NCBI GenBank assembly: GCA_964413425.1
Contig: CAYPST010000001.1
Span: forward strand, 25,942-89,941
Direction of reading: 5' to 3'
DNA: 64,000 bases
Source: an uncultured bacterium
GTDB taxonomy: Bacteria > Fidelibacterota > JAANXI01
Both the position numbers and the translations under genes were made by a program. Below, piece after piece: positions 7,683 through 42,196 of this stretch (position 1 is the first letter of the stretch; every line of letters starts with the position of its first letter). The notes beneath the pieces were generated by a model. It worked only from the letters and a program-made list of their open reading frames with translations, was not told the origin of the DNA and made no database searches.

Positions 7683-8777
7683 TTAAGCGAAGTAAGCATT
7701 GACCGTATCAATCACCCTTTGCCGGTCGGTTTCGGGCATCTCCGGATAAATAGGCAGGGAAAGAATATGTGCGGCCACCTCCTCGGAAACCGGGAGTCCC
7801 GCAGTTTGTCCGACCTGCCGGAAGGCTGGTTGGTGATGCAGGGGAATGGGATAATGGATAGCAGTCGGGATATCATGCTCCTGCAAATAATCCCGTACAT
7901 CATCCCGATTCGGCACCTGAATCGAAAATTGATGGAAGACATGGGTGTTCCCGGGAAGAATTTCAGGGAGCGTGATCTCCTCCGGTATGATTTCGCGTTT
8001 ATACTCCTCTGCAATAGCGGCTCTCCCGGCATTCCACTGTTTCAAATACGGAAGTTTGACTCGTAGAACCGCTGCCTGCAGTGCATCCAGACGACTGTTC
8101 ACCCCCAATGTTTCATGCTGATACTTCACCCGGGATCCGTGCTTGGTTATCATGCGGAGCCTCTCCGCCACTTCCGCCTCATGGGTGACCATCATGCCTC
8201 CGTCACCGTACGCCCCCAAATTCTTGCTGGGAAAGAAACTGATGCATCCGACATCACCGAAGGTCCCGGCATATCCCCCGTTACGGGTGGCTCCGATCGC
8301 CTGGGCCGTGTCTTCGATCACCACCAGGTCATGCCGGCGGGCGATCTCCAGAATCTCCTCCATATCTGCGCACTGTCCATAGAGATGCACGGGAATGATA
8401 GCCCGGGTATTTTCAGTGATGGCATCTTCGATGGCTGCCGGATCGATGGTATAGCTCACCGGATCGATATCGACGTAGACCGGCGTGGCACCCAGCAGGG
8501 CGACAACCTCCACCGTGGCCACAAAAGTGAACGCGGTGGTGATCACTTCGTCGCCCCGGCCGATATCATACGCCATTAGCGCAATCTGGAGGGCATCCGT
8601 TCCGGAAGCGCACCCCACGGCATATTCGATGTCCAGAAAGTCAGCCATTTCTTCTTCCAGAGTCTGGAGCTCCGGGCCCATAACAAAATAGCCGGAATCC
8701 AACACCCGTTGAATAGCGGCATCCATCTCGGGCTTCAGGTGCTTGTACTGTGCTACCAGATCAAGAAATTGCATCAT
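7683..8777 (-). CDS. DegT/DnrJ/EryC1/StrS family PLP-dependent sugar aminotransferase (WbpE-like)
   Basis: 364 aa; AAT fold I sugar aminotransferase signatures (ISFFPSKNLGAYGDGG with the catalytic Lys). Confidence 0.85.
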   Translation of the reverse strand: MMQFLDLVAQYKHLKPEMDAAIQRVLDSGYFVMGPELQTLEEEMADFLDIEYAVGCASGTDALQIALMAYDIGRGDEVITTAFTFVATVEVVALLGATPVYVDIDPVSYTIDPAAIEDAITENTRAIIPVHLYGQCADMEEILEIARRHDLVVIEDTAQAIGATRNGGYAGTFGDVGCISFFPSKNLGAYGDGGMMVTHEAEVAERLRMITKHGSRVKYQHETLGVNSRLDALQAAVLRVKLPYLKQWNAGRAAIAEEYKREIIPEEITLPEILPGNTHVFHQFSIQVPNRDDVRDYLQEHDIPTAIHYPIPLHHQPAFRQVGQTAGLPVSEEVAAHILSLPIYPEMPETDRQRVIDTVNAYFA

Positions 8778-9059
8778 CAGGTTCCTTCTCCGTTTCTATT
8801 TTTTCCGTCTCTCAATGTCGATATGCTTTATGAACATGTCTGCTGACTTACCTTCCCCATTCGCATAGAGCTTCCCCAAAATGATCCGCCCGGACTACTC
8901 CGGCATCAGAAAAATCATGCTCTTTTTTGTGCTGTTTTGACGGCTTTGACTGACACTACTTCTTCATCACTTTATTTTAGATTATCTGTGGTCATCTGTG
9001 TGCACCAGTGGCCGATATCCGTGTCGCATGCAATACAGTGTTTCGCGCACCGGCCGCTC

Positions 9060-10652
9060 TCACGTCGACACCTTGAGCCGGTGAATTTCCCGGTCGCTCA
9101 CCTGTGCATATTTCCGTCCGCAGCGTTCGCAGACGGCTTTCTCCCCATCAAATGCCAGCCGGGTTCCGCACTCACACATCCAGCCGGCAATTCGCCCCGG
9201 GTTGCCAACCACAAGCGCATAGTCAGGCACATCTTTGGTTACCACCGCGCCGGCACCAATAAATGCATGCTTCCCCAGGGTGATCCCGCAGAGAATGGTG
9301 GCATTTGCACCGATAGAAACGCCTTCCTTCACCAGGGTTTTGATATAATACTCCGATCCCCGCTGAGGATATTTGGAGCGGGGATTCATAATATTGGTGA
9401 ATACCATGGATGGCCCGCAGAACACGTAATCCTCCAGCTCCACTCCCTCGTATACCGAGACATTGTTCTGGATTTTCACATGATCCCCAACCCGGACCCT
9501 GGGCCCCACCATGACATTCTGTCCCAGAGTGCAGTTCTCTCCGATGGTGGTATCGCCGAGAATATGACTGAAATGCCAGATTTTGGTCCCCTTCCCGATG
9601 GTGACGTTTTCGTCAATCACCGCGGTATCATGCACTCCCGGATGTCTGGGAGGTTTCACCCTCTCTGCTTCCCGGGAAACCAGACTGTTCTGCGCGGCAT
9701 CCAGAATTTGCAGCACCTGGATGCCGTTGCGCCCATCGGTTAACGGCTGCTTCCGCGACCGGACGCACTCCAGAAAGTGCTGACACTCCGACTTCAGGGG
9801 TTCTGTCTCCGGATAGGAAATACTCTCCCACTCGTTTTTCCGGGGAATCGGCTCCCCCTCCGTCCAGTCGATTCCCCGATCATACAGTTTGAGTTTATCT
9901 TCCGAGGCGGTATCCTCGAACACCAGCATTTTCTTACTCCCGATGATGGCCAGTCTGTGCTCCTTGAACGGATGCAGCCAGGACACATGAATATGCCCCA
10001 GCTGGTTATCGGGAAACTCCAGGGTGGTCAGGGTGACATCATGAATGTTCGGCTGCAGGAACATCCCGCCCTGGCAGCTGACGTTCTCCGGCATCGCCTT
10101 TAACAGGTGAAGCAGAACAGAAATATCGTGGGGAGCAAAACTCCAGAGAATATTTTCTTCCTGCCGGACTTTCCCCAGGTTCAACCGGTGAGAATAGACA
10201 TGATAGATCCGGCCGAGCTCGCCGGCGTCAATCATCTCCTTTATCTTCACAATGGCCGGATGATATAACAACAGGTGCCCGACCATCAGAATACGGTCGT
10301 TCTCCAACGCCAGCCGGTGCAGTTCTTCCGCCTCGTCCACCCGCAGCGCCAGCGGTTTTTCCACAAAGATATCTTTCCCGGCCAGCAGGGCTTTTCTGGC
10401 AATGGCATAATGGGTTTCCGCCGGGGTGGCGATGCCCACTGCAGTATAGTCATTCCGCTCCAGCACCTCATCCACGGATCCGAATCCCTCCGTTCCGGGA
10501 TATTGCTGCAGGAATGTTTCGAGACGTTCGGAATTGTCTTCCACAATGCCGCTGAGAACATCCAATTCGTGAAAATTCCTGATCAGATTCTTTCCCCAGT
10601 AACCAGCACCGATCACGGCCAGATTAATTTCAAAGGAAAATGAGGATGGCAA
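9060..10652 (-). CDS. bifunctional Gfo/Idh/MocA oxidoreductase (WbpB-like) fused to a hexapeptide-repeat N-acetyltransferase (WbpD-like), with a C-terminal zinc-ribbon
   Basis: 530 aa; N-terminal Rossmann GAGYWG plus EKPLAL of the Gfo/Idh/MocA family; C-terminal left-handed beta-helix hexapeptide repeats; terminal CECG-x13-CERCG. Confidence 0.75.
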
Positions 10653-11113
10653 AATTCATTCCCTTCCTGTTAGAATTGAGGTTGTTCCAAATAGTAAAGC
10701 AAAGAGCTTGTGTGCTTATTCAATGAGGATACCCAAGGATATATTGAATTATATTACGTATTTGTAAAGTCTTGTACAATAAGAGTCTATTTAGAAAACG
10801 CCTCGAAGAGATCCCGTGACGACGGGACAAAGAACACCTGAACAATTGGCTCCTGCATCCCGAAAAATATTCGGGAAATATGTGCTGTCTATACTCCATG
10901 GAAGCCGGGCGCAACATTTTGTCGATACTTACTGTTTTCTAAACACTCTCATAATTAAGTAAACCCTAAGTTGAGCGAAACGAGTGCCCCACTGGGATCC
11001 CTTAGGGATACTTCGGTAGAACCCCGACTGAGAAAATGTAGGTTTTCACCGAACGGGTGCGGAACGTCCCGACGCCGTTTTCGGGGAGGTGAACACGTAC
11101 ATTTTCTTTGTCG

Positions 11114-11145
11114 ATTGAGCGATTTATGGAAATAAATCGCTCAAT
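11114..11145. promoter_or_regulatory. 13-bp perfect palindrome with 6-nt spacer (ATTGAGCGATTTA-TGGAAA-TAAATCGCTCAAT)
   Basis: Both arms read identically on opposite strands; lies in the 618-bp AT-rich gap inside the polysaccharide locus; no flanking U-run, so more likely a protein-binding operator than an intrinsic terminator. Confidence 0.6.
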
Positions 11146-11270
11146 TTGGGTAAACATAATTCGTGACCATTCCCCGAAGCCTCGGGGCAGGCTGTGTAAT
11201 TCGTGGTTTCTATAGCACTCTCAGAATTGCGCAGATCAAAATTCAATTGGAATCGTCCCCGGGAATCGAA

Positions 11271-12632
11271 TCAGACTTCCAGCTTCACCGCCTCCCGGGG
11301 GGTTTCCAGATATCCGGTTCCCAGTTTGATCACATTTTGAGGAAGTTTTCCGTCGGTTTTACTGACAGCATTCCGTGTATCGACGACCAGCCGGGAATTC
11401 TCCACAATAGCCTGGTAATCGAACGTGGAATGGTCGGTGGCAATGACGGTGCAGTCGTACCCGGAAAGGAGGTCGTCGGAGTACTCGATGGATTGCATCT
11501 CCTTACCATCGAACTTGATCCGGGGGATATACGGATCGTAATACTCCACCTCGGCCCCTTTCTGGCGCAGGAGATTGATGATATCCAGCGCCGGGGATTC
11601 CCGGACATCATTGATATCCTTCTTGTAGGCGGCCCCTAACACCAGAATCCTGGCACCGTTGACGCTTTTCCGGTGCCGGTTGAGGCCTTCCATGGTGAGA
11701 TGGACCACATGGTAGGGCATTTCGGTATTGATTTCCCCTGCCAGTTCGATGAACCGGGCTTTATAATCCAGGGTCTTCATTTTCCAGGCCAGATAATGAG
11801 GGTCAATCGGAATGCAGTGTCCGCCTAAGCCGGGACCCGGATAGAACTTCATGAACCCGAACGGCTTGGTATCGGCTGCCTCGATGACCTCCCAGATATC
11901 CACACCCAGTTTCTCCGCCATAATGGCCATCTCATTCACCAGCCCGATATTAATAGATCGGAAGGTGTTCTCCAGCAACTTCACCAGTTCGGCCGCTTCC
12001 GTGGACGAGACCGGTACGATGGTATCGATGACCCCTTCATAGAGTAAGGCCCCCATCCGGGTGCACTCCGGCGTAATTCCCCCCAGAACTTTGGGGGTAT
12101 TTTTTGTGTGGTAGGTCCGATTGCCGGGATCCACTCTTTCCGGACTGAACACCAGATAGAAGTCTTCCCCGACCTCCAGCCCGCTTTCCTCCAGCCTGGG
12201 CAGCACCAGCTCTTTGGTGGTGCCGGGATAGGTGGTACTCTCCAGGATAATGATGATTCCGGAATGCAGATACTCCGTTATTGAATCCAGCGCTTTCAGG
12301 ATAAATGAGACATCGGGATCCTTCAATTTATTCAGCGGCGTGGGAACACAAATTGACACCGCTTCCATCTCTTCGATCACATTGAAATCGGTGGTGGCAG
12401 CCAGTTTACCCGCCTCAACCAGCCCTTTCAGGGTAGAATCTGAGACATCCTGGATGTAATTCTGTCCCGCGTTAATCCGCCGGACCTTCGATTCGTCAAT
12501 ATCGATCCCCACCACCCGAAATCCGGACGACGCGAAATCGGCGGCCAGCGGCAAACCGACGTATCCCAGTCCCACTATGCCCACCGTGATATCGTGCTGT
12601 TGAATTCGTTGCTCAAGATTCATTGCTGTCAA
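11271..12632 (-). CDS. nucleotide-sugar dehydrogenase (UDP-N-acetyl-D-glucosamine/mannosamine 6-dehydrogenase, WbpA/TviB-like)
   Basis: 453 aa; N-terminal GLGYVGLP Rossmann motif; catalytic Cys region (GGHCIPID); UDPG/MGDP dehydrogenase architecture. Confidence 0.8.
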   Translation of the reverse strand: MTAMNLEQRIQQHDITVGIVGLGYVGLPLAADFASSGFRVVGIDIDESKVRRINAGQNYIQDVSDSTLKGLVEAGKLAATTDFNVIEEMEAVSICVPTPLNKLKDPDVSFILKALDSITEYLHSGIIIILESTTYPGTTKELVLPRLEESGLEVGEDFYLVFSPERVDPGNRTYHTKNTPKVLGGITPECTRMGALLYEGVIDTIVPVSSTEAAELVKLLENTFRSINIGLVNEMAIMAEKLGVDIWEVIEAADTKPFGFMKFYPGPGLGGHCIPIDPHYLAWKMKTLDYKARFIELAGEINTEMPYHVVHLTMEGLNRHRKSVNGARILVLGAAYKKDINDVRESPALDIINLLRQKGAEVEYYDPYIPRIKFDGKEMQSIEYSDDLLSGYDCTVIATDHSTFDYQAIVENSRLVVDTRNAVSKTDGKLPQNVIKLGTGYLETPREAVKLEV

Positions 12633-13690
12633 CCTTGCTCTTCACCTTCCTGGTTTGATAATTCCAGTTGATAGTGTTGTTTATAATATTCTAAAAAATC
12701 GCCGCTTTTTAACGGCTTCCACCAGGAGTCATTTTCCCGGTACCATTGGATAGTCTCCAGGAGCGCTGTTTCAAATCCGGATGTGCCTCGATGGATCGGA
12801 GTCCATCCCAGCGCATTGATTTTGGTGGTCTCGAGTGCATACCTGCGGTCGTGGGCCTTCCGATCAGTGACAAATTGAATGAACGATTCATCCTTGTCAA
12901 GCACTGATAAAATCATCCGGGTGATCTCAATATTCTGCATTTCATTCCCGGCAGCGATGTTGTAGGCTTCCCCTTCTGCACCGTGCTCTATCAGGAAACA
13001 AATGGCGTCGCAATGATCTTCCACATACAGCCAGTCACGGACATTTGTCCCGTCGCCGTACAGCGGGAGTGGTTCCTCCTGAAGTGCATTGGTCACGAAT
13101 AACGGAATCAGCTTTTCAGGATACTGGTACGGTCCGAAGTTATTGGAGGCCCTGGAAATAATCACCGGCACGTCATACGTCTGTGCATAGGCATAGGCCA
13201 GCCGATCGGCACCCGCCTTGCTTGCGGCATACGGATTGCTGGGCATCAGTGGAGACTCTTCTGAAAACTTGCCGCGCTCGATACTGCCATAGACTTCATC
13301 GGTGGAAACCTGAATAAATTTCCCCAGACCGAACTCCCTGGCAGCTTCCAGCAGTCGATAGGCACCATAGATATCGGTGTGAATAAAATCATCGGGGTTG
13401 CCGATAGACCGGTCGACGTGGCTCTCCGCGGCAAAATTAATTAGGATGTCCGGCCTGAATTCACCGAAAATCTCTCCCACCACTCCGGCATCGCAGATAT
13501 CGCCCCGGATAAACTGATACGTCGCCGTATCCTCTATATCCCGCAGGTTGGCCGGATTGCCGGCATAGGTGAGTTTATCCAGATTCACCACCTGCACATC
13601 GGGATAGCGCTGCATAATATAACGGATAAAGTTGCTGCCGATGAACCCGCATCCGCCGGTTACAAAAAAGGTATGGTCCGCTATGGTCAT
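12629..13690 (-). CDS. rfbB: dTDP-glucose 4,6-dehydratase
   Basis: 353 aa; TGGCGFIGSNF Rossmann motif; STDEVYG and YAASK catalytic motifs of the extended SDR family. Confidence 0.85.
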   Translation of the reverse strand: MTIADHTFFVTGGCGFIGSNFIRYIMQRYPDVQVVNLDKLTYAGNPANLRDIEDTATYQFIRGDICDAGVVGEIFGEFRPDILINFAAESHVDRSIGNPDDFIHTDIYGAYRLLEAAREFGLGKFIQVSTDEVYGSIERGKFSEESPLMPSNPYAASKAGADRLAYAYAQTYDVPVIISRASNNFGPYQYPEKLIPLFVTNALQEEPLPLYGDGTNVRDWLYVEDHCDAICFLIEHGAEGEAYNIAAGNEMQNIEITRMILSVLDKDESFIQFVTDRKAHDRRYALETTKINALGWTPIHRGTSGFETALLETIQWYRENDSWWKPLKSGDFLEYYKQHYQLELSNQEGEEQG

Positions 13691-14145
13691 CGATTCTCCC
13701 TCTCCCAGTTGTAGGGAATTTCGTCCGTATCGAAAGGCAGTCGATACTCATCGGGATCTTCATGATTATACGGTTGATTGACAACACTCATCACCAGAGA
13801 TTCCGTATCCGAAATCCCCTTCCAGCCGTGATAGACGTAGGGGGGGATACTCACGATCATCATGTTGTGATCTCCGATGTAAAATTCGTTCACTTCCCCG
13901 TGGGTCGGGCTCCTGTCTCTGGCATCGTACAGGGCCAGCTTTATCATCCCGGAGACGCAGCAGACTGCGTCGTGCCGCTGCTCTTTGTGATAGTGCCAGG
14001 CTTTGACCACCCCCGGATAGTTAGTGGTGAGATAGACCTGGCCAAATTGGGTAAACATCTCGTCATCCCGCCGCAATATCTCAAACAAGCGGCCGCGTTC
14101 GTCCGGAATGACACGCAGTTTTTTGGTTTGCACTCCTTCGATCAT
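13687..14145 (-). CDS. dTDP-4-dehydrorhamnose 3,5-epimerase-like cupin (RmlC/WxcM family)
   Basis: 152 aa; cupin with a conserved His pair (KAWHYHKEQ); 4-nt overlaps with both neighbours; shorter than canonical RmlC, so the exact activity is uncertain. Confidence 0.6.
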   Translation of the reverse strand: MIEGVQTKKLRVIPDERGRLFEILRRDDEMFTQFGQVYLTTNYPGVVKAWHYHKEQRHDAVCCVSGMIKLALYDARDRSPTHGEVNEFYIGDHNMMIVSIPPYVYHGWKGISDTESLVMSVVNQPYNHEDPDEYRLPFDTDEIPYNWERENR

Positions 14146-15467
14146 GAGAGTTTCTCACTATACGTTTCTCTCCCCACACAGGCGTATTTAAATCCAATCT
14201 GCCGAACGGTGTCGGGGTCATATAAATTGCGGCAATCCACCAGTATCGGCTGTTGCATCAACTGTTTGACCCGGGCCAGATCGATTCCGCGGAATTCGTT
14301 CCATTCCGTAAGCACCATTACCGCGTGGGAGTCCTTCACACTTTCGTAGAGGTCTTCCACATACTCTAATTCCGGATGAATTTCTTTCATGGATGCTATT
14401 GCCACCGGATCGAATGCCTTGATTTTCGCGTTAACCGCCTGCAATCTGTTTATTATCGGAAGGGCCGGCGATTCCCGTACATCATCCGTTCGCTGCTTGA
14501 AGGCCAACCCCAGAAGCGTGACTGTCTTTCCCTCCGGATCCGGCAGCAGGGTTTGCAGCTTGTCAAACATGCGTAATTTCTGGGCTTCGTTCACCTCGGT
14601 GACCGCCTGAATCAATTTCGCCTGGTAACCCATTTTTTCGCCGATGGCGTGCAGTGCCCGGACATCTTTGGGAAAACAGGAGCCTCCGAACCCGGGTCCG
14701 GGATGCAAAAATTTGGGGGAGATCCGCCCATCCAATCCCATGGTTTTGGCGACGACATGGACGTCCGCACCAACGTGATCACATAAGTTGGCCATCTCGT
14801 TAATAAAGGTGATTTTGGTGGCCAGGAAGGCGTTGGAGGCGTATTTAATCAGTTCGGCAGTCGGAATATTGGTAAAGATGAATGGCGTTTCGATGAGGTA
14901 CAACGGACGGTAGATTTCCTGTATGATCTGTTGTCCGTGTTCGGTTTCGGAGCCGATAACCACCCGATCCGGGTGCATGAAATCGTACACCGCGGATCCC
15001 TCCCGGAGAAATTCGGGATTGCTGACGACCTCAAAACTGCTGCCCGGCTGTGCGACCTTTGCGATAATCTTTCGAATTTCTGCTCCGGTCCCCACAGGTA
15101 CCGTGCTCTTGGTCACCACAAACTTGTGCCCATCGAGGTTTTTCCCGATGGTTTCTGCCACAGCAAACACCTGGCTCAGGTCCGCCTGCCCGTCATCCGC
15201 GGAGGGGGTTCCGACCGCAATAAACACAATTTCGGCGTCCCGGATGCCCGCCTCAATGTCCACTGAGAAATGCAGCCGTCCCGCCCGGACGTTCTTCCGA
15301 ACCATCTCAATCAGGCCCGGCTCCCAGATGGGGAGCTGCCCTTTGTTCAGGGTCTTGATTTTTTTACGATCAATATCCAGACAGGTCACTTCGTTTCCGA
15401 AATCAGCCAGCCCGGTGCCGGAGACCAGGCCGACGTATCCCGCTCCAATCACTGCTATTCTTCGCAC
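14142..15467 (-). CDS. ugd: UDP-glucose 6-dehydrogenase
   Basis: 441 aa; N-terminal GAGYVGLV motif; catalytic GFGGSCFPKD motif. Confidence 0.85.
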   Translation of the reverse strand: MRRIAVIGAGYVGLVSGTGLADFGNEVTCLDIDRKKIKTLNKGQLPIWEPGLIEMVRKNVRAGRLHFSVDIEAGIRDAEIVFIAVGTPSADDGQADLSQVFAVAETIGKNLDGHKFVVTKSTVPVGTGAEIRKIIAKVAQPGSSFEVVSNPEFLREGSAVYDFMHPDRVVIGSETEHGQQIIQEIYRPLYLIETPFIFTNIPTAELIKYASNAFLATKITFINEMANLCDHVGADVHVVAKTMGLDGRISPKFLHPGPGFGGSCFPKDVRALHAIGEKMGYQAKLIQAVTEVNEAQKLRMFDKLQTLLPDPEGKTVTLLGLAFKQRTDDVRESPALPIINRLQAVNAKIKAFDPVAIASMKEIHPELEYVEDLYESVKDSHAVMVLTEWNEFRGIDLARVKQLMQQPILVDCRNLYDPDTVRQIGFKYACVGRETYSEKLS

Positions 15468-15570: not shown

Positions 15571-17640
15571 TCATAACAATCCGCTCCTCCGGCGTATCCA
15601 CCAGTCGACCGCAAACATCACTACCAACACCCCCCAAATCCAATGGGCGGATCGTAACCGCAAAGCGTGCTGGCGTGTCTCCCGGATGTTCGGTGCTTCG
15701 GAAACCCGGGTCATCGGGAAATCCCGCATATCCGACAATGATTCCCCGGAATAACGGGTACTGAGGTTTTGTAACTGCTCGGGATTCCCCTGGGTGCCAC
15801 TCGTCTCGAGATTGATTTCCGGTATCCGGAACACTGCGGACATAACTTCCAGAGTATCAACAGGCGTGTAGGCCCTGGTCCGAAGCCGGTATTCCCCGGG
15901 GACGCGTATTTTTTCCTGATACATGTACATCTCACCATCCCGGGAAAACAATCCCCGGTGAGCGATCTGTCCGGTGGAATCCACCACCTCTCCTAACACT
16001 TTTGCGATCTCGACCGGCTGCATAGCGGTCGTATAGACTTGCGCTTCCGCACGTAGTGAATTTTGCGCATCCACCTCCGTCCAGACCTGCAGTCTGTCAG
16101 AAGGGGAGGTTTGCAATATCCAATACAACAGCTGAGCCAGGGTCGCCCGGTACGGATGTTCCGGGAATATCTGGCTGTTGCCCCTCCCTTCCATCTGTTG
16201 TTTCGCGAAATCCCATCGCCATAAATGCTGCCCGAGAATACGGATCATCTTCGGATCGGTACTCTCATGGAACGTAATAACCGGAGCGCCTGATGCTCTG
16301 CCGCGTAATGCCACTCTCTGCGATTGCTGTGCCAATCCGGGGGCCGGCAGTGTCCAGATGGGCGGTAATTGTTCCCAGGCCGACATACGCCGAATCACAG
16401 ACAGCAGGGGATTATCCGTCCGGTTGGCAATTTGCACTCCTTCCTCCATCCAATCATTGGAATTGGAAGGATTCGGTCCTGCTATCTGCCCCCGGGAGTC
16501 GGCTTGCAGGAGAATGCCTCGCAGATCAGATTGGTCTCGTGCTCTGGTGATGATATCCGAACCGCCGGCCGGGCGGCCGATTACATACACAATATCGGCC
16601 AGCGCAAACAGTGAATCCAGTGCTGATTGCGGTGATAACGTCGCATAAAACGTGTCCAACGAGAAACGCTCCATCTGCCGGATGGCCTGCCCTGCAAATC
16701 GCGTTTCATAGGAGGGGGTCTCAGCGTATAAGAGCACCTGATAGCGGGAGGGCCGAACTCTGATCTGACGTCTGGAGACATTATTTGTCTTATGTTGTTC
16801 CCCCGGGAGTGTATCGATCCGGCCGACTATTTGATAGTCTCCGGGATCGGAGAGAACAAACATTTCCGTCATCTCCCGGCTGTAGGATCCGGGAGAAAAA
16901 ACCAGGGACTCCGCAGCATGATGATAAGAATTCGAATTCACTCGAAAATTCAGCGTGCTCTCCCGCGGAAGCCGTTCCACCGTAAACTGCAACTGTGTCC
17001 GGATAGAATCTCCGGCATACGCGACCCGGGGAAGCATCATCTGCTCTAACCGGATGTCGGGAGCCACAGCAGAGTCGCCAACAAAATGGGTATAGACGGG
17101 GATGTGAGCCGCCGCCCCGGGAGTGATCGATCCCGGGAGTACTCCACTGTTATGACTGCCATCACTCACAATGAAGGCTGCCCGAATATTATTTGCACGC
17201 TGATGCTCCCTCATGTGGAAAAGCGGCAGGCTCAGGTTCGTCAATTGTTCGTCAAACTCCAGCGCCGAAATGCCATTCACCTGGTGTACGTCACTGTCGA
17301 AAGAGTACAGGGTATAGTTCACATTCTGTTGATCGAATTGATCCAGCAGAGATTGGAGTACGCTGTGTACCCGGTCAGCATCGTCCTGCATACTCTGGGA
17401 ATTATCCACATAGATGGCGACCACCGGAGGCAGGGAGCGTGAAGTTTGCCAGAGCGCCTGCAGGTTCACGGTGAGCAGTACCAGGACAACCAGGCCCATC
17501 ATTCTGATGGTACGTAAAACAACTGCAATCCGGCGCTCTGCAATTTTGCGCAAATAATAGGTGCTCCACCACCAGAAAGTGAGTCCTCCGGCGAGGACGA
17601 TGAGTGTAATCCAGGCCGAATCTGTGAGTAACCGGAACAT
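15571..17640 (-). CDS. von Willebrand factor type A (VWA) domain-containing membrane protein (BatA-like)
   Basis: About 690 aa from an internal Met; two N-terminal TM helices; MIDAS motif DNSQS; the start chosen at 17640 abuts the tsaD stop codon. Confidence 0.6.
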   Translation of the reverse strand: MFRLLTDSAWITLIVLAGGLTFWWWSTYYLRKIAERRIAVVLRTIRMMGLVVLVLLTVNLQALWQTSRSLPPVVAIYVDNSQSMQDDADRVHSVLQSLLDQFDQQNVNYTLYSFDSDVHQVNGISALEFDEQLTNLSLPLFHMREHQRANNIRAAFIVSDGSHNSGVLPGSITPGAAAHIPVYTHFVGDSAVAPDIRLEQMMLPRVAYAGDSIRTQLQFTVERLPRESTLNFRVNSNSYHHAAESLVFSPGSYSREMTEMFVLSDPGDYQIVGRIDTLPGEQHKTNNVSRRQIRVRPSRYQVLLYAETPSYETRFAGQAIRQMERFSLDTFYATLSPQSALDSLFALADIVYVIGRPAGGSDIITRARDQSDLRGILLQADSRGQIAGPNPSNSNDWMEEGVQIANRTDNPLLSVIRRMSAWEQLPPIWTLPAPGLAQQSQRVALRGRASGAPVITFHESTDPKMIRILGQHLWRWDFAKQQMEGRGNSQIFPEHPYRATLAQLLYWILQTSPSDRLQVWTEVDAQNSLRAEAQVYTTAMQPVEIAKVLGEVVDSTGQIAHRGLFSRDGEMYMYQEKIRVPGEYRLRTRAYTPVDTLEVMSAVFRIPEINLETSGTQGNPEQLQNLSTRYSGESLSDMRDFPMTRVSEAPNIRETRQHALRLRSAHWIWGVLVVMFAVDWWIRRRSGLL

Positions 17641-18644
17641 CAGAGCGACGAGATACTTAATCGTGGTTCGGTAGTGAAATGCAGCGTCGTGGGGCGGTCG
17701 TGCTTCAACGCCATCCAACCCGCATATGCAATCATAGCTCCGTTATCGGTGCAGTATTCAAATGCGGGATAAAACACCTGCACGTCCAGCGTTTCACTCA
17801 GTTCGATCATTCGCCGGCGCAATCGGGAATTCGCGGCTACTCCGCCGGCAATCGTCACACGGGTAATCCCGGTGCATTCCACCGCCTGTTCAATTTTTGT
17901 CACCAGAGAATCAATCACAGCGGCCTGGAAACTGGCGCAGAGATCCGAAATCTGTTGACGCCGGGGCTCTTCATCCAGCGATTCGATGGTATAGAATACT
18001 GCGGTTTTTAATCCCGAGAAACTGAAATTTAAGTCACCGGAATCGATCATGCCTCTGGGAAAGTCATAGGCCTCCACATTACCATTCCGGGCATATTTGT
18101 CGATATACGGACCGCCCGGATATCCGAGATCCAGCAGCCGTGCTATTTTATCGAAGGCCTCTCCGGCAGCATCGTCGATTGTGGTTCCCAGGATCTTGTA
18201 TGCTCCGTAGGCGTCCACCTGGATAATCTGGGTGTGGCCTCCGGAGACCAGCAGACAGAGGAACGGATACGTCAGGTCCGGATTGTCAATAAAATTCGCC
18301 AGCAGGTGAGCCTCGATATGGTTGACAGAGATAATGGGCAACGCATTGCGGAGTGCCAGGCCTTTCCCGAAGCTCACGCCCACCAATAACGAGCCCATCA
18401 ATCCGGGCCCGGCAGTCACGGCGATACCATTCACGGCCGGCAATGAGATTCCCGCTGCGGTAAGCGCCGATTCGGTAATATGCGCCAGGAGCCGTTCGTG
18501 CTCTCGCGATGCCACTTCAGGGACCACTCCGCCGTATTCACCATGCACCTGCTGCGACGCAATGATATTACTGCGGACTGCGCCCTCCTCAACCACGCCC
18601 ACTGATGTTTCATCACACGATGTCTCAATTCCCAACACAACCAT
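17640..18644 (-). CDS. tsaD: tRNA N6-adenosine threonylcarbamoyltransferase
   Basis: 334 aa; Kae1/TsaD signatures (GIETSCDETS, metal-binding HIEAH). Confidence 0.9.
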   Translation of the reverse strand: MVVLGIETSCDETSVGVVEEGAVRSNIIASQQVHGEYGGVVPEVASREHERLLAHITESALTAAGISLPAVNGIAVTAGPGLMGSLLVGVSFGKGLALRNALPIISVNHIEAHLLANFIDNPDLTYPFLCLLVSGGHTQIIQVDAYGAYKILGTTIDDAAGEAFDKIARLLDLGYPGGPYIDKYARNGNVEAYDFPRGMIDSGDLNFSFSGLKTAVFYTIESLDEEPRRQQISDLCASFQAAVIDSLVTKIEQAVECTGITRVTIAGGVAANSRLRRRMIELSETLDVQVFYPAFEYCTDNGAMIAYAGWMALKHDRPTTLHFTTEPRLSISSL

Positions 18645-23061: not shown

Positions 23062-24771
23062 CTATTTCATTCGCGCCCCTCCCTCTTCTCTGTCAAGAAT
23101 CCAGCTCACAACCGGTCCCAATTCACTGGGATCCGAATCGAATTCATACTTGCGCCGGTGGTAATATTCGGATGAAAAATTCACCGCCCCATCGCCGTCC
23201 AGTTCTTCCAGCAGCTGGGTGATCCGCTCATGCCACTTCTCCATATTGCTCTTCCGAAGATCCAGCCATCCGTTATCCGCCCAGTAATTCACCCGTTCCG
23301 GTGTTGATTCAAACCTATCCACCCCTTCGAACCGCGGAAAACTCAATACGGGACCACGCATGAATGTGTTCCCTGCCGGGAGCAGAATCCCGGTACCTAT
23401 CGAGAGGATAATCTGCCGTAAGGGATCATCCTGGCGTAATATTTCCAGCATCTCTCTGGAGAGAGTTTCAGGCGAATATTGAGGTATACTCCGAATATCA
23501 CCGGCGATTCGCTTCAATAAATAGATTTCATACAGTAACTTGGTAATCATCGGCGGTCCCAGCAGCTCGAAGGCAATCGATTTGCTCTCATACTCCTCTT
23601 CCAGTTCACGCATTTTCTTAATCGCCGTGTTCCGGAGCGTTCCGCCCCGGTAGGATGGATTCAGCACCGCAGCATCCAGCGCACTGACAATATCCGTGCC
23701 GGTATTCCCCCCTTTAATTTCCATGAGCACCTTGGAGGCAATCTCTTCCGGCGTCACAAATTCCATTAATCCCTCAGCTGTGATCACCGCGAACTCCCCT
23801 GTGGAATAGTACCCGTTTTCCCCGGCATCGATATACACTGACTCTACCACCTGATTGGGCAGTTCCACCCAGTATTTTTCCGGATACCGCTCGAGATAAT
23901 CATCCACCAGATGTGCCCACTCCACCTTACAGTCGTACATGGGGATATAGGTTCCATGCCGGCGAATTTTCCCGTGCCCGATTTCTTTCCAGCCAATAGC
24001 CGCGGCAGGCTTTATCTCCTTGATTATCGGGCCGTCCGGGGTTCGGCCCATGAGAAACAACAGCATGGAATGGGCCCCGGCTACCGAAGATTTGCTCAGC
24101 AGCAGCTTGGAAGGCTTCTCTTCACTGTGGGTGAACGGCACATTCAACCCCATGCCGCCGGTGCCGGTGGTCCCAATTTTCAGATAACACTCGGTCTTAT
24201 ATTCGGCCATGGCCAGATGTAATATTTGAACATGACGAATGAGCTGCGGGATATACTGAGAAGCAATGAGTTGCTCCAGATCTCCCACCAGTTCTGAGGA
24301 ATATTCCTGCGTTCCATCCTGTTCCTTCAATTCATTTCGAATCTCCGCCACCTTCTCAAATAAATTCTGATATGCAAAGGCGGTCGCCGTATTGATACAG
24401 TCGATAATGATGTGCGGCCGAAACGTTCGGATTAACCGGTATAAGTAGGAGGACTCCAGGACATCATCGCTCAGGTCGTCATAGAGGTCTGCAATGAGCA
24501 TCTCCCGCAATTCGGGATCCTCGTACATGTCACCGCGGGGGACATCTTTCATGGACTCCCGGACAAAGATATCGCCCCATTCCCCGGAAATTTTGCTGTT
24601 ATATTTGTCCCCGAGCGGCTGGAGAATCTCCAGAACCTCGTTAATTTCTTCCTGCCGCAGCGAGGTAACCACCAATTCACCGGGAGCCTCGGTCAGCAGT
24701 TGTTTACTGATGGCACGTCCCACCAATCCCCAGCCACCGAATACCATTAATCGCTTTCCCTGGATGTCCAT
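23062..24771 (-). CDS. uncharacterised protein with N-terminal NAD(P)-binding Rossmann-like motif
   Basis: 569 aa; glycine-rich GGWGLVG near the N-terminus, otherwise no motif I can place; embedded in the scpAB-rluB-cmk-rpsA housekeeping operon. Confidence 0.5.
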   Translation of the reverse strand: MDIQGKRLMVFGGWGLVGRAISKQLLTEAPGELVVTSLRQEEINEVLEILQPLGDKYNSKISGEWGDIFVRESMKDVPRGDMYEDPELREMLIADLYDDLSDDVLESSYLYRLIRTFRPHIIIDCINTATAFAYQNLFEKVAEIRNELKEQDGTQEYSSELVGDLEQLIASQYIPQLIRHVQILHLAMAEYKTECYLKIGTTGTGGMGLNVPFTHSEEKPSKLLLSKSSVAGAHSMLLFLMGRTPDGPIIKEIKPAAAIGWKEIGHGKIRRHGTYIPMYDCKVEWAHLVDDYLERYPEKYWVELPNQVVESVYIDAGENGYYSTGEFAVITAEGLMEFVTPEEIASKVLMEIKGGNTGTDIVSALDAAVLNPSYRGGTLRNTAIKKMRELEEEYESKSIAFELLGPPMITKLLYEIYLLKRIAGDIRSIPQYSPETLSREMLEILRQDDPLRQIILSIGTGILLPAGNTFMRGPVLSFPRFEGVDRFESTPERVNYWADNGWLDLRKSNMEKWHERITQLLEELDGDGAVNFSSEYYHRRKYEFDSDPSELGPVVSWILDREEGGARMK

Positions 24772-28334: not shown

Positions 28335-30149
28335 TCAGTTCCAGAACTGCCACCGTACCCCAAGAAAGAAGACGGGAAAATGCGCGCGCTGATCCAGGGC
28401 ATATCGTAACTGGTAAGCCAGGATGTTGTAGAATGATGTGGAAAGAGTGAAGGGGCCGACCTCTCCGATGAGGTACAAATGGATACAGGCACTGGCGGCC
28501 GGCGCGGCAAGGCCCGGATAATACGTTATACTCTGAATCGCCGGGCTCCAGCCTGAGGGCTGCCGTGAAAAATACATTCCATTCTCCACATAGAGATGCA
28601 GCAGCAGATTGTTCTGAAAGAGATACCGCTGGAGGTGCAGCCAGCTGGTCACTGATTGCCTGCTCCACAATTCCGGCACCACCTGGGTCATCTGGGGATA
28701 ACTGATGTATTGCGATCCCAGGGAAAGCCAGGGAAAGGGGTCGATTCCAACCCGGGAATGCAGCCCGATGAGTCGTCCGGCACTCTGGCGTGCCATCAGT
28801 GAGGTGCCTGCGTCGCCGGCGGAAGATGCATGTATCAGGGTATACCAATCCTGAAAACGTATATGTTCAGCAATGAATTGGAGAGAGCTCCAGTCGGTTA
28901 CCTGGAATTCCACTCCCGCCTGCAACCGGTCCAGCCGGGTCAGAGCAGGCCTGCCATTCCTTTCCAGAAGAGGGTTCTCTCCATAGCTCCATTGCCGGGG
29001 CGGCGCGGAGACTTCCCGGCGGTACCTCCCGGTGACCGTTAAAATATCCCACCATGAATAGGAAATCCGGAACTCTGGTAACAGGAGGAGATCCCATCGG
29101 GAGACTCTGTTGAGGCCTATCTGCGTTGCCCCGGCTTCCAGGTTTACATTTGATCCCTGGTAGTAGGCACGAAATCGGAGGTGATGCCAGTGCTCGTCAG
29201 TCCTGGGAGTGGTCTCCGACTGGTGCTGGAAGATATTGTATCGATAGAATAATTCGGACAGCAGCAAGCCCCCCAGGGAGGCACGCGCACCAATCCAGCC
29301 GCCCCGCTGTACCTCCATTAATTGGGTTGTGCCGGCGGTCCGGTTCAGCCAGAGCCGGTGAGAACCCAGGTTCAAACCACCATACAGGGTGCCGAGGTGA
29401 TGAGTGGTTCGCCATTCCAGCTGGTTATAATACCAGCTGCTGAATTCATCTCCGATCTGTTGCATATTCGGTAAAGCGGTGGTCCAGTTCAGCTGATCTC
29501 TGGTATAAAAGGTATTATAGAAAAATATAGTCGAATCACTCACCTGATGATGCACTGCAGCATAATATCTCTCGTTCTCCAACCCTTCCAATGCGTAAGG
29601 TCCGACATATCCCTCACCTTCTCTGGCCAGATGCAGATGAGTCTGTTCCGTGATATCGGCAGCCAGGCTGATGGAGAGATCATTCAGAGCGTAATCGCCT
29701 TTTTTATAGGCCACATTTACCAGGGGCTCTTCTCCCTTCTCCAGAATATGCGTTCGGAGAGGATATTGGAGTTGACCATCCTCCCGGAACCGAAACCCGA
29801 TGATGGCGTGCTCGGGAAAATATCGGGAAGGGATGGTTGGACGCAGCCTGGTGCGAATCCGATGGTTTTGAATGTATATGACATTCCCGTATTGCGGACC
29901 GGTGACCCCCTGCCAGAAGCCGGTGTTTCCGGTCTCTTCGCGCGGAAAAAAACCGGGAGGATGCATAATCATCAATTCATGCAGCCGCGAACGTATGGCA
30001 ATCGGTACGGTCTCTGTATCGAGAATGATTTGCGTGCTGTCCGGCTCCCGGATATGCAGAGAATCTACACTTTGTGCTCTTATCCGGATCGGAGCTAATG
30101 CCAGAATGGCAAAAAGAATTGTGGCAACGCGTCTGTTTGAAGAACTCAT
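28335..30149 (-). CDS. outer-membrane beta-barrel protein (hypothetical porin-like)
   Basis: 604 aa; cleavable signal peptide; alternating amphipathic beta-strand pattern; C-terminal aromatic residues (...RWQFWN) as in beta-barrel OMPs. Confidence 0.5.
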   Translation of the reverse strand: MSSSNRRVATILFAILALAPIRIRAQSVDSLHIREPDSTQIILDTETVPIAIRSRLHELMIMHPPGFFPREETGNTGFWQGVTGPQYGNVIYIQNHRIRTRLRPTIPSRYFPEHAIIGFRFREDGQLQYPLRTHILEKGEEPLVNVAYKKGDYALNDLSISLAADITEQTHLHLAREGEGYVGPYALEGLENERYYAAVHHQVSDSTIFFYNTFYTRDQLNWTTALPNMQQIGDEFSSWYYNQLEWRTTHHLGTLYGGLNLGSHRLWLNRTAGTTQLMEVQRGGWIGARASLGGLLLSELFYRYNIFQHQSETTPRTDEHWHHLRFRAYYQGSNVNLEAGATQIGLNRVSRWDLLLLPEFRISYSWWDILTVTGRYRREVSAPPRQWSYGENPLLERNGRPALTRLDRLQAGVEFQVTDWSSLQFIAEHIRFQDWYTLIHASSAGDAGTSLMARQSAGRLIGLHSRVGIDPFPWLSLGSQYISYPQMTQVVPELWSRQSVTSWLHLQRYLFQNNLLLHLYVENGMYFSRQPSGWSPAIQSITYYPGLAAPAASACIHLYLIGEVGPFTLSTSFYNILAYQLRYALDQRAHFPVFFLGVRWQFWN

Positions 30150-32104: not shown

Positions 32105-33505
32105 TCACATCAACAGCTGAATCTTCTCCACGTACCCATCCGCATCGAATTTCCGCTTCAACCCATTCGCATTCATATACCGGACCTTCCCGTAGACGGG
32201 ACGTTCTTTCCATCCCTGGTCATGATTACCGAAGCACCAGGCAACCCCGGCATAGCCGTTGGGATCCCGTCCGTCGAGTTCGTACTTGTTATTTAAATAG
32301 AGTGCAATATCATACGCTCTTCCCGGATGCTCCGTCCACTCCAGGATCTTCTTCCCCCAGTACATCCGCATGTATCCGTGCATTTTCCCGGTAAGAACCA
32401 TTTCCATCTGAGCGGCATTCCAGTAAGGATCATGGGTCTCTGCTCTCTCAAATTCTCCCGGGGAGTACATATATTCACGCGTATCTTCTGCATGTTCGGA
32501 CAGAGTTACCCCAGCCCACTGTGGCAGGCAGGAAAATTCATCGTAATTTTCGGTGTAATAACAAAAATTCACGCTCAGTTCCCGCCGCACAATCAACTCT
32601 TCCAGGTAAGGGTCTTTGCCCGGACTTTCAGTCTCCAGGATCTTCCCGGCGATATAGAGCGGAGAGATTTGGCCGAAACGGAGATAGGGACTCATGCGTG
32701 AGAGGGCGTCTTCCACCGGATTATTACGGTCGATATCATATCGATCCAGTTTCTTCGCGATGAAAGTATTCAACAAATCACGTGCACGGGAAGTCCCGCC
32801 CCGGAAGTGCTCAGTCGGTGTCACCGATCGATCAACGTCAAGTGCGTGCAGCACAGCAGAGATATCCGAAATGTCTGCAGACCGGATACTAGGGCCGACG
32901 GAGGGATTCCTCACCTCTTCCCGCGTTACCGGGTGGAGAAATTTATCCAGATGGCGGTGTATTTTTGGCCGGATGGTTCTGGCAGCATACTCGCGTTTCA
33001 AAGTAACTTCCTCCACCGGGACCACCACATCAGATTCCACCTGGAATAAGGGACAATCGATGTTCCCGGCAACCTCCCGGCGCCACTGCCTCTGGATGCG
33101 CGTGTACCCGCGATCGGTAACCATAAGTACTGCCCGCCGGGAAAATTCTATGGCAACCCGTTCCGGAGACTGATAACGAATGGCCATCTGAATTCCGCGC
33201 TCTCGTAATTTCTGCTGTGTTTCCTGAAGCCCTTCCAGCATGAACTTGTAATGCCGGGCATTGGCCTCAGGATACTCACCGGTAATGCCGAACACCACCA
33301 GCGGCGGCACATTCAAACGGTTCGCATGCTGAACGGCAAACTCCAGAGCGTGATTGTACTCCTCTCGCTGAGAAGCCTGCATCCAATAGATCACATACTT
33401 CCCGGACTGCCCTGTGTGATCAGTCAGTCTTTGAACCCGCTCGGTCGGAATCATCGCCTGCGCCTCTAATGAACTTTTCATTCTCCCGTCCTCCTCCCGT
33501 GTCAA
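32105..33505 (-). CDS. phr: deoxyribodipyrimidine photolyase (class II CPD photolyase-like)
   Basis: 466 aa; photolyase N-terminal alpha/beta domain and FAD-binding C-terminal domain (WN...M...HGYMRMYWGK). Confidence 0.8.
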   Translation of the reverse strand: MTREEDGRMKSSLEAQAMIPTERVQRLTDHTGQSGKYVIYWMQASQREEYNHALEFAVQHANRLNVPPLVVFGITGEYPEANARHYKFMLEGLQETQQKLRERGIQMAIRYQSPERVAIEFSRRAVLMVTDRGYTRIQRQWRREVAGNIDCPLFQVESDVVVPVEEVTLKREYAARTIRPKIHRHLDKFLHPVTREEVRNPSVGPSIRSADISDISAVLHALDVDRSVTPTEHFRGGTSRARDLLNTFIAKKLDRYDIDRNNPVEDALSRMSPYLRFGQISPLYIAGKILETESPGKDPYLEELIVRRELSVNFCYYTENYDEFSCLPQWAGVTLSEHAEDTREYMYSPGEFERAETHDPYWNAAQMEMVLTGKMHGYMRMYWGKKILEWTEHPGRAYDIALYLNNKYELDGRDPNGYAGVAWCFGNHDQGWKERPVYGKVRYMNANGLKRKFDADGYVEKIQLLM

Positions 33506-33976
33506 TCATCGGTCCTTTCCGAACCGGTGTCTGAGGATTTCCGCCCGGAAGTGAAAAATGTCGTTCAGGCGTTTCCGGACGACGAACTTATGCACCAATT
33601 CTCCTATTATGCTCAGCGGCATGGCATAATGGACAATATCTTCCATTCTGGTGCCAGAAGCGGTTTCCCGGAACAGATGCTGATGATGCCAGAACCGATA
33701 CGGTCCGAAGCGCTGTTCATCTACGAACATCTTCCCGGGATGAAAATGAGTGATTTCGGTAATCCATCGGAGGGAGACGCCGGGAAATACGCCAATTCGG
33801 TACGTGATTATCAGACCTGCATACATCTGATCAGGTACCTCCGAAGTGATGCGAAACCGCAGCCAGTCAGGTGTGATGTCAGCGAGATTCCCGGGATCAG
33901 AGAAGAAATTCCATGCCTCCGCTAACTCAACCGGCAGCAGCTGCGTGCGATGAATGCGATGAAGGTTCACGTTCAA
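33506..33976 (-). CDS. SRPBCC (START/polyketide-cyclase-like) family protein
   Basis: 156 aa; abuts the photolyase gene with no intergenic gap. Confidence 0.6.
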   Translation of the reverse strand: MNVNLHRIHRTQLLPVELAEAWNFFSDPGNLADITPDWLRFRITSEVPDQMYAGLIITYRIGVFPGVSLRWITEITHFHPGKMFVDEQRFGPYRFWHHQHLFRETASGTRMEDIVHYAMPLSIIGELVHKFVVRKRLNDIFHFRAEILRHRFGKDR

Positions 33977-34037
33977 TCAGTTCCAACCTTTCCTGCCTCG
34001 AATGATACTTCAGTTATCAGAAGCTACAGTTATAATT

Positions 34038-34733
34038 TCACTTTAAAAGCACCAACCCGAAATAGAGTATCTGGGCAAAAAATATATGCTTTGCTAACAT
34101 AGGCGCCTGATTCGGTACGGCATTGAACCGCAGACCGAGAACCGTGAAGAACAGACTTATTACGAACCAGGCGGTGTAATTCCGGAGCGGAATGCCCCCG
34201 CCAAACCAATGCCAGTACCCCAGTGTGACAGCCACTTGCTCCAGAAGGAAATCAAACAGGACCATCGACACTGCAATCAAAAGTCCCCGGAGCAGCCATT
34301 TCTGTTGTGTATTTTTCACAAGCCAGTCAACAACGCCGTTTGACGCCAGAAGCATCCCCAGCCATGCGAAACCGATTGCCAGGGGTACTCCCCGAATCAC
34401 CGGCCGGAGCACCTGGCCGTATTGATACTTTCCAAAAATTACGCCCGTTTGCGCCCCAATTAGTTCTACGAAAAAACTTGCGCCCAGCACAAAGAAGCTC
34501 CAGGCAATGAATACCAGACGACTGTGAGTCGACAGAATCCGATAATACTCACCTGCTAACCATATCCCGAGAACGATAATAACCGGCCCAGCCAGAATTC
34601 TCATGGTATCCTGCAATATTCCCAGGAGATGCCAGAACCCGCCGGCCAGGAGTATAAAGTAGAGCGCTCCGAGCTTGATCCGGGATATATGCTCCCGGTT
34701 GAATCCTCTCCGGATAAACCCGAATCTCCTCAT
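34038..34733 (-). CDS. membrane carotenoid biosynthesis protein, CruF-like (putative carotenoid 1',2'-hydratase)
   Basis: Polytopic membrane protein of about 230 aa from the internal Met at 34733 (the longer ORF would overlap the upstream gene by 86 nt); position in the carotenoid operon next to GT2 and acyltransferase genes mirrors cruF in Salinibacter/Rhodothermus clusters; assignment by context. Confidence 0.5.
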   Translation of the reverse strand: MRRFGFIRRGFNREHISRIKLGALYFILLAGGFWHLLGILQDTMRILAGPVIIVLGIWLAGEYYRILSTHSRLVFIAWSFFVLGASFFVELIGAQTGVIFGKYQYGQVLRPVIRGVPLAIGFAWLGMLLASNGVVDWLVKNTQQKWLLRGLLIAVSMVLFDFLLEQVAVTLGYWHWFGGGIPLRNYTAWFVISLFFTVLGLRFNAVPNQAPMLAKHIFFAQILYFGLVLLK

Positions 34734-34767
34734 ATCTTCCGTATGTTCCTGTCTTGTTAGCCAGCCA

Positions 34768-35889: not shown

Positions 35890-35896
35890 CGAAATC

Positions 35897-36616: not shown

Positions 36617-36760
36617 GATCCGGTGCCGTGCCCAGTGTTAAAAACTTGAATTTCAGTACCGGGCCATGGATACACGAGTCCACACTCAAATTTTCCGAAT
36701 TCATACTGGCAGCCATTCCCTCCTCGTTACATCCTGCGATTTCTACCCTGTCAGGAACCA

Positions 36761-37675: not shown

Positions 37676-37679
37676 ACAA

Positions 37680-42021: not shown

Positions 42022-42196
42022 TGGTCCCCTCTTCTCCGTTTGCTCATATGGTTATTTCTGAATATATGAGCGTTATGAACGGTAAATGTTACAGATTTAT
42101 TTTAACTGAGTCAAATATAAAAGTTCAATACGATTATATTATTTGCTTCTCCGGTACGCAGACAGTAATTTTCTTCTGAATATCAGGGAGGGGAAT
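42022..42196. promoter_or_regulatory. divergent promoter/operator region between the carotenoid operon and the litR/carH-like regulator
   Basis: 175-bp AT-rich intergenic region between two divergent start codons; direct repeat TTCTGAATAT at 42056-42065 and 42173-42182; TGTTACA/TGTCAAA-like elements. Confidence 0.5.

Follow-up and report, generated by a model that had tools for sequence, protein, structure and literature searches.

Two predicted enzyme domains in one open reading frame

The gene described here lies in a stretch of 64,000 nucleotides from an uncultured bacterium of the Fidelibacterota (contig CAYPST010000001.1 of assembly GCA_964413425.1), which we refer to as the window. It occupies positions 9060..10652 on the minus strand as one uninterrupted open reading frame (ORF) of 530 amino acids in the ORF list, and Pfam, NCBIfam and an AlphaFold model point to a bifunctional protein, a dehydrogenase of the GFO/IDH/MocA family (GFO) followed by a WlbB-type N-acetyltransferase. 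An earlier note, written from the sequence alone, had proposed that a WbpB-type oxidoreductase, a WbpD-type acetyltransferase and a terminal zinc ribbon are fused in this protein. Its core observation, that a single 530-residue polypeptide joins a sugar C3-type oxidoreductase to an acetyltransferase, is borne out by the ORF list, Pfam and NCBIfam. In our view the gene probably encodes a bifunctional enzyme that arose by fusion of two neighboring genes of a pathway to di-N-acetylated UDP-sugars.

Translation would start at a TTG codon at 10652, as read from the sequence, and a Shine-Dalgarno-like AGGAAGGG (10668..10661, minus strand), likewise read directly, precedes this codon with a spacer of 8 nt. 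Residues 9-126 (10275..10628, minus strand, as for all parts of the gene) form the GFO/IDH/MocA NAD-binding Rossmann domain (PF01408, GFO_IDH_MocA, 85 bits), with GAGYWG and the triad E98-K99-P100. The GFO C-terminal alpha/beta substrate domain follows (residues 135-324, 9681..10250; PF22725 and PF02894), with the motif LWSFAPHD that contains H175 and D176. An inter-domain linker of residues ~325-339 (9636..9680) is modeled with a predicted local distance difference test score (pLDDT) of 83-95 and varies in sequence and length throughout the family. It leads into a left-handed beta-helix (LbH) N-acetyltransferase domain of the WlbB/WbpD type (residues 340-490, 9183..9635; Hexapep/LbH Pfam models, 82 bits). 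The protein is closed by a C-terminal beta-hairpin cap with four cysteines (Cys4; residues 491-525, 9078..9182, core 9120..9176), which is homologous to the C-terminus of WlbB. The AlphaFold model, computed from an alignment of 96 sequences, reaches a pLDDT of 94.4 and a predicted template modeling score (pTM) of 0.79 and is confident across the junction. In the family alignment the linker, taken as the spacing from L317 to H341, ranges from 11 to 90 residues with a median of 27 and has low column conservation. A fold search found no solved structure covering both halves. Conservation in fusions is given below as counts in 96 fused sequences.

The acetyltransferase half and its cysteine-rich tail

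When the C-terminal half was searched against the PDB, WlbB (3MQG) was matched with 216 bits over WlbB residues 6-183 of 192. Other LbH N-acetyltransferases followed at a distance, with FdtD (4MZU) as second-best PDB match at 148 bits, 7S43 at 125 bits and QdtC at 64 bits, and a family profile raised the WlbB score to 325 bits. Residues H360, H363, N379, N420 and R425 are each kept in at least 92 of the fusions, N420 in 94 and R425 in all 96. In the alignment to 3MQG, N420 pairs with the Asn of the WlbB FTN motif, which we take to be the active-site residue called Asn84 in the WlbB paper. Because the score to WlbB so clearly exceeds those to FdtD and QdtC, the C-terminal half is predicted to be a genuine WlbB/WbpD-type N-acetyltransferase (EC 2.3.1.201-like) and not a generic hexapeptide enzyme, and the WbpD-type label of the earlier note can be retained for this half. 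The likeness to WlbB of Bordetella petrii (3MQG/3MQH) and WbpD of Pseudomonas aeruginosa, the N-acetyltransferases of UDP-2-acetamido-3-amino-2,3-dideoxyglucuronate (UDP-GlcNAc3NA), covers nearly the whole enzyme including the C-terminal segment, and the conserved LbH residues are common to WlbB and our protein. Unlike WlbB, however, the domain sits behind a dehydrogenase.

The tail reads GWM-C493-E-C495 and then C508-ER-C511-GRKY, hence a spacing of CxC-x12-CxxC (CECG-x11-CERCG), and 19 residues lie between the motif and the end of the protein. The earlier note had the protein ending in CECG-x13-CERCG; the four cysteines are there as described, but the spacing has to be corrected and the motif is not the terminus. 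The same note regarded the Cys4 element as foreign to both canonical domains, a view that does not hold. The cysteine-rich region pairs residue for residue with GWMSRHGEQLDLPLRGNAEATCPHTGERYI of WlbB, and the 3MQG alignment continues through WlbB residues ~160-183; the positions of the four cysteines are occupied by S, H, C and T in WlbB. Since the alignment runs through this region, the tail is best described as the predicted native C-terminal segment of the acetyltransferase family and not as an added module. AlphaFold predicts the tail as all beta, built of hairpins with a pLDDT of ~96-97, and both sequence and model place the two cysteine pairs (CxC and CxxC knuckles) on beta-hairpins, where they are conserved as a unit.

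We also searched the C-terminal half alone against 1.84 billion representatives. Stand-alone acetyltransferases (~190-250 residues) and fused ones are intermixed in the ranking, and a column tally gives all four cysteines in 69 of 107 acetyltransferase-only representatives (~64%), in 32 of 54 strictly stand-alone proteins of at most 235 residues and in 24 of 36 fused representatives (~67%). The pattern is all-or-none: among 267 homologues 190 have four cysteines, 55 have the third cysteine only and 4 are intermediate. Such behavior is consistent with a structural Cys4 metal site, and the motif is probably a structural zinc site. On a rough neighbor-joining tree some lineages have lost all four cysteines together, with at least 12 such losses. 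Judged from these alignments, Cys4 appears to be the majority form of the acetyltransferase family cap, and Bordetella WlbB a degenerate form.

The dehydrogenase half

The N-terminal half gave a different picture from the WbpB-type assignment made in the earlier note. Its PDB matches include an unnamed oxidoreductase (3C1A; 84 bits in the single-sequence search, 148 bits with the family profile) and GnnA (7BVJ; 81 and 143 bits). WlbA of Bordetella pertussis (3Q2K) reached 43 bits at rank 22 and 97 bits at rank 23, respectively, and a further WlbA entry (3Q2I) 83 bits in the family-profile search, where both rank among inositol dehydrogenases and glucose-fructose oxidoreductase. The entries 3OA2 and 3O9Z, presumably WbpB of P. 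aeruginosa and WlbA of Thermus thermophilus, are not among the top 60 of that search. The best Foldseek superpositions are with GnnA (7BVJ/7BVK; template modeling (TM) score 0.89-0.92, root-mean-square deviation 1.9-3.4 Å), compared with a TM score of 0.82 for WlbA, and Foldseek labels 7BVJ as 'UDP-N-acetylglucosamine 3-dehydrogenase GnnA'. The top NCBIfam model is the archaeal 3-dehydrogenase of UDP-N-acetylglucosamine (UDP-GlcNAc), NF040723, matched with 166 bits over model positions 2-300 of 302. From these comparisons we conclude that the N-terminal half is likely a sugar C3 dehydrogenase of the GnnA/MMP0352-like subfamily and not of the WbpB/WlbA one.

The EKP motif is kept in at least 91 of the fusions, H175 in 90 and D176 in 95, and the HD pair is common to GnnA in the alignment; the N-terminal half therefore looks catalytically competent. 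By sequence, fold and NCBIfam its nearest characterized relatives are GnnA of Acidithiobacillus ferrooxidans (7BVJ/7BVK; EC 1.1.1.374) and the archaeal MMP0352 type. They have the EKP and HD motifs in common with it, although identity is only ~25%, and GnnA is unfused and works in the synthesis of the 2,3-diamino-2,3-dideoxyglucose (GlcN3N) of lipid A. The archaeal genes are said, in work by Namboori and Graham from 2008, to be separate as well. The WbpB/WlbA enzymes (3Q2K, 3Q2I; EC 1.1.1.335) act on UDP-N-acetylglucosaminuronic acid (UDP-GlcNAcA) as 3-dehydrogenases. They share with it the two-domain GFO fold, the EKP motif, a formal reaction of the same type (C3 oxidation before a DegT transaminase) and the logic of the gene order. 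Nevertheless, they are not the closest subfamily and stand behind many unrelated GFO enzymes in both PDB searches. Since the N-terminal half is nearest to UDP-GlcNAc 3-dehydrogenases, its substrate could be UDP-GlcNAc rather than UDP-GlcNAcA.

Distribution of the fusion and other fusion formats

The full-length protein was searched against 5.8 billion protein clusters, and the best 120 of at least 8000 scored candidates were inspected. At least 120 clusters share the fusion architecture at 54-80% identity, and nearly all of the best 120 are full-length proteins of 517-557 residues; three carry an extra domain at the C-terminus, and one has a broken C-terminus. In the variants P0013, P0015 and P0016 (694-695 residues) the protein continues beyond the Cys4 tail with another hexapeptide/LbH region, which may be a second acyltransferase. 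The closest named relative, at 76% identity, is a protein from Candidatus (Neo)Marinimicrobia. In species-representative genomes (one genome per species) at least 600 stretches from more than 15 phyla were matched. The 80 reference loci kept from these include Nitrospirota, Planctomycetota, Acidobacteriota, Desulfobacterota, Verrucomicrobiota, Chloroflexota, Bacteroidota, Alpha- and Gammaproteobacteria, Patescibacteria, Omnitrophota, Marinimicrobia, the cultured Microvirga rosea and a single archaeon (Methanobacteriota). The rarity implied by the earlier note is thus not found; the architecture is widespread, recurs far more often than chance would allow, and the homologues are already annotated automatically.

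Other arrangements of the same genes occur. Close relatives at seven loci (L035, L037, L038, L044, L050, L058 and L067) encode GFO and acetyltransferase separately, with the order of the two unchanged; at L038 a GFO gene of 322 codons is followed after a gap of 4 nt by a 191-residue acetyltransferase with a Cys4 tail and then by an overlapping DegT gene. The acetyltransferase is fused to DegT in P0153 and P0238 (564-572 residues), and all three activities are joined in the GFO-acetyltransferase-DegT triple fusion P0176 (892 residues; L081, 369-3047). P0153, P0238 and P0176 have the same acetyltransferase subfamily and gene order as the window protein, but the latter ends with the acetyltransferase, and its DegT partner is encoded separately, 282 nt downstream. 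When 99 acetyltransferase domains were placed on a neighbor-joining tree, at least 18 changes between the fused and the stand-alone state were required, compared with a mean of 32 for shuffled states. In Bordetella the order wlbA-wlbB-wlbC corresponds to oxidoreductase-acetyltransferase-aminotransferase. The split, acetyltransferase-DegT and triple-fusion relatives all keep this order, and the simplest reading is therefore a recurrent fusion and fission of neighboring wlbA-wlbB-wlbC-like genes. This does not require any design for substrate channeling.

Gene neighborhood

The fusion is one of six genes that form a sugar-nucleotide block. The block begins with a UDP-glucose dehydrogenase gene (14142..15467), followed by a gene for an RmlC-like cupin of 152 residues (13687..14145; 87 bits to 3EJK, 22 bits to QdtA) that adjoins rmlB (12629..13690; Pfam). 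Canonical RmlC is longer than this cupin, whose best relative 3EJK is an uncharacterized 'dTDP sugar isomerase'. Downstream of RmlB lies a UDP-N-acetylhexosamine 6-dehydrogenase of the WbpA/WecC/Cap5O class (11271..12632; TIGR03026 449 bits, 4R16 256 bits, Cap5O 237 bits), then the fusion, and finally a DegT/WbpE-class sugar 3-aminotransferase (7683..8777; PF01041 400 bits, P. aeruginosa WbpE 3NU7 346 bits), which also scores 323 bits to QdtB. All of these genes are on the minus strand. The statement of the earlier note that the aminotransferase is the next gene downstream, and unfused, is confirmed. Housekeeping genes border the block, with seryl-tRNA synthetase (SerRS) at one end and TsaD together with a membrane protein at the other. 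Between fusion stop and DegT start lies a gap of 282 nt (8778-9059), a region in which many relatives have abutting or overlapping genes (L038, L083). The 620 nt from the WbpA-like gene to the fusion (10653-11270) contain no credible ORF in an otherwise tightly packed block. A promoter and terminator scan of 8700-11400 returned nothing above shuffled expectation, and Rfam gave no match anywhere in the 64-kb window.

Neighborhoods were counted in the 80 reference loci, of which 79 were scorable. DegT adjoins the fusion in ~41 of 70 evaluable loci, directly downstream in at least 28 and directly upstream in ~13. A WbpA-like gene lies within ~6 kb in only 15 of the 79, directly upstream in about 9-12, and an Epimerase_2 gene is present in 22. 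The complete string of WbpA, fusion, DegT and 2-epimerase occurs at L009, at the archaeal L017 and at L030. From these neighbors, the fusion family belongs to 2,3-diacetamido sugar pathways. That a 6-dehydrogenase is often not nearby lends mild support to UDP-GlcNAc as substrate. At L083, from a member of the Nitrospiraceae, the fusion and DegT form a pair without WbpA within 10 kb. There, a NusG-family (UpxY-like) gene (9310-9831) precedes the fusion and a nonulosonic-acid cluster (NeuB, CTP_transf_3) follows, which suggests that this glycan locus is under dedicated antitermination control.

Other features of the window

Elsewhere in the window, positions 32105-43066 look like a light-response and carotenoid neighborhood. 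It comprises a photolyase (32105-33505), a family 2 glycosyltransferase (GT2; 34768-35889), a phytoene/squalene synthase (36761-37675), two phytoene-desaturase-like amine oxidases (37680-40800) and, on the opposite strand, a MerR-type regulator with a B12-binding domain that is CarH/LitR-like (42143-43066). Three minus-strand ORFs (15571-17718, 715 residues; 23062-24771, 569 residues; 28335-30149, 604 residues) had no Pfam match at E<=1e-5. A further ORF, of 1012 residues, lies at 55657-58695. Nearly all plausible genes of the window are on the minus strand and the cumulative GC skew declines steadily over the 64 kb, which fits a single replichore with strong gene co-orientation.

Discussion

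We propose that the fusion and the downstream WbpE-class aminotransferase most likely make UDP-2,3-diacetamido-2,3-dideoxyglucose or its uronic acid, UDP-GlcNAc3NAc(A). The individual steps, which we infer from homology, would be as follows. The N-terminal GFO/IDH/MocA domain would oxidize UDP-GlcNAc or UDP-GlcNAcA at C3 with NAD+ to the 3-keto sugar, the separate pyridoxal phosphate-dependent DegT/WbpE-class enzyme would transaminate it to the 3-amino sugar, and the C-terminal WlbB/WbpD-type domain would then N-acetylate the product with acetyl-CoA to UDP-GlcNAc3NAc(A). The upstream WbpA-class 6-dehydrogenase may supply or complete the uronic acid. Given that the N-terminal half belongs to the GnnA/archaeal MMP0352-like subfamily, we narrowly favor UDP-GlcNAc over UDP-GlcNAcA as its substrate; 6-oxidation would then follow at a later stage, which is the archaeal order. 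The benefit of the fusion would most likely be co-expression and co-assembly of the two domains, and joining an LbH trimer to GFO dimers could produce a higher-order oligomer.

Several points weigh against this proposal. The N-terminal half is not a demonstrated orthologue of GnnA or WbpB, and its substrate and regiochemistry are predictions from homology; with 166 bits it also stays well below the equivalog cut-off of 450 of NF040723. Neither a 2-epimerase nor a dedicated glycosyltransferase cluster was found among the window ORFs scanned, and our literature search found no biochemical data for any member of the fusion family. Zinc binding by the tail is deduced from its cysteine pattern only, and the isolated tail matches no curated Pfam zinc-ribbon model (best Zn_ribbon_SprT, 15.8 bits against a cut-off of 28.1). 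The neighbor-joining and parsimony counts are rough, given the shortness of the domain and the presence of metagenomic fragments among the entries. Finally, the uronate UDP-GlcNAc3NA is the substrate of the closest characterized relative of the C-terminal half, and the gene immediately upstream of the fusion is of the WbpA class; both observations fit the classical Pseudomonas/Bordetella order equally well.

This classical order is the alternative that we take most seriously, and we regard it as fairly plausible, though less likely than not. Here the N-terminal half would be the equivalent of WbpB and act on UDP-GlcNAcA delivered by the upstream WbpA-like enzyme, and the tightly bound NADH would be recycled with 2-oxoglutarate released by the aminotransferase. 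Besides the uronate substrate of the best match and the WbpA-class neighbor, which recurs directly upstream in ~9-12 related loci, it can draw on the JGI name of the homologues as UDP-GlcNAc3NA N-acetyltransferases. However, the N-terminal half is no nearer to WlbA/WbpB than to unrelated GFO enzymes, its nearest characterized relatives use UDP-GlcNAc, and a WbpA-like gene within ~6 kb is restricted to the 15 of 79 scorable loci mentioned above. The 2-oxoglutarate-coupled recycling of NADH has been described for WbpB/WlbA (PMC10622841) and cannot be assumed to apply to the N-terminal half.

A more far-reaching version of our proposal would make the fused family a widespread non-WbpB route of bacteria and archaea to 2,3-diacetamido sugars. 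In this scenario a GnnA-like oxidation of UDP-GlcNAc would proceed without the 2-oxoglutarate cycle and 6-oxidation would come last or be absent. GFO dimers and LbH trimers would build a hexameric or larger scaffold whose zinc-stabilized caps dock DegT, so that all three steps take place in one particle. The rare triple fusion P0176 hints at the latter, but we consider the scenario as a whole unlikely.

The earlier note had suggested channeling of the unstable 3-keto intermediate. On this reading a special fusion of WbpB and WbpD would have evolved for that purpose, and the foreign zinc ribbon might serve, for example, for docking of the aminotransferase. It is true that the first and third step are covalently linked, that DegT is adjacent in most genomes and that a triple fusion with DegT exists, and the pTM of 0.79 of the AlphaFold model may hint at a defined inter-domain arrangement. 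Yet the two fused activities are not consecutive, and therefore the intermediate must leave and return in any arrangement. Both the length of the linker (11 to 90 residues) and its sequence are variable, the Cys4 tail is part of WlbB-type enzymes themselves and as frequent in unfused as in fused ones, and the N-terminal half is not WbpB-like. Moreover, the fusion formats track gene order and split forms persist in close relatives. We therefore hold evolution for channeling to be improbable, and prefer recurrent fusion of neighboring genes of a 2,3-diacetamido sugar pathway.

The acetyltransferase half and DegT could also serve, together with RmlB and the small cupin, a pathway to a dTDP-3-acetamido-3,6-dideoxyhexose (Qui3NAc or Fuc3NAc). 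The two upstream genes (12629..13690 and 13687..14145), the score of DegT to QdtB (323 bits) and FdtD as second-best PDB match of the C-terminal half speak for this idea. We have rejected it as highly improbable: the C-terminal half is WlbB-like (216 bits, against 148 for FdtD and 64 for QdtC), the cupin resembles the RmlC-like 3EJK (87 bits) and not QdtA (22 bits), such a pathway needs no GFO dehydrogenase, and the family-wide context is that of WbpA, DegT and 2-epimerase. Two-gene versions do exist in some relatives, but an artificial fusion by frameshift, sequencing error or misassembly has a practically negligible probability and is excluded by the uninterrupted reading frame, by the same architecture in at least 120 clusters and at least 600 reference-genome stretches, i.e. 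in hundreds of independent assemblies from many phyla, and by a model that is confident through the junction.

In the literature we found no paper describing a WbpB/WbpD or WlbA/WlbB fusion or such a bifunctional enzyme, only incidental uses of 'fusion' and 'bifunctional'. The fusion is abundant and annotated automatically, and the family is apparently uncharacterized biochemically. NCBI calls the homologues 'Gfo/Idh/MocA family oxidoreductase' and JGI 'UDP-2-acetamido-3-amino-2,3-dideoxy-glucuronate N-acetyltransferase'; pipelines thus give these proteins only one of their two activities, and the practical value of the finding lies mainly in annotation. What goes beyond the earlier note is the assignment, from sequence comparison, of the Cys4 cap as a probable majority trait of the WlbB/WbpD family and of the dehydrogenase half as GnnA/MMP0352-like. 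That the Cys4 cap occurs in most WlbB/WbpD-family enzymes and is absent from the one crystallized member is a small structural point, and the current understanding of the pathway is not overturned. With the fusion and its GnnA/MMP0352-like half recognized, 2,3-diacetamido sugars would be predicted better in surface glycans across many uncultured phyla.

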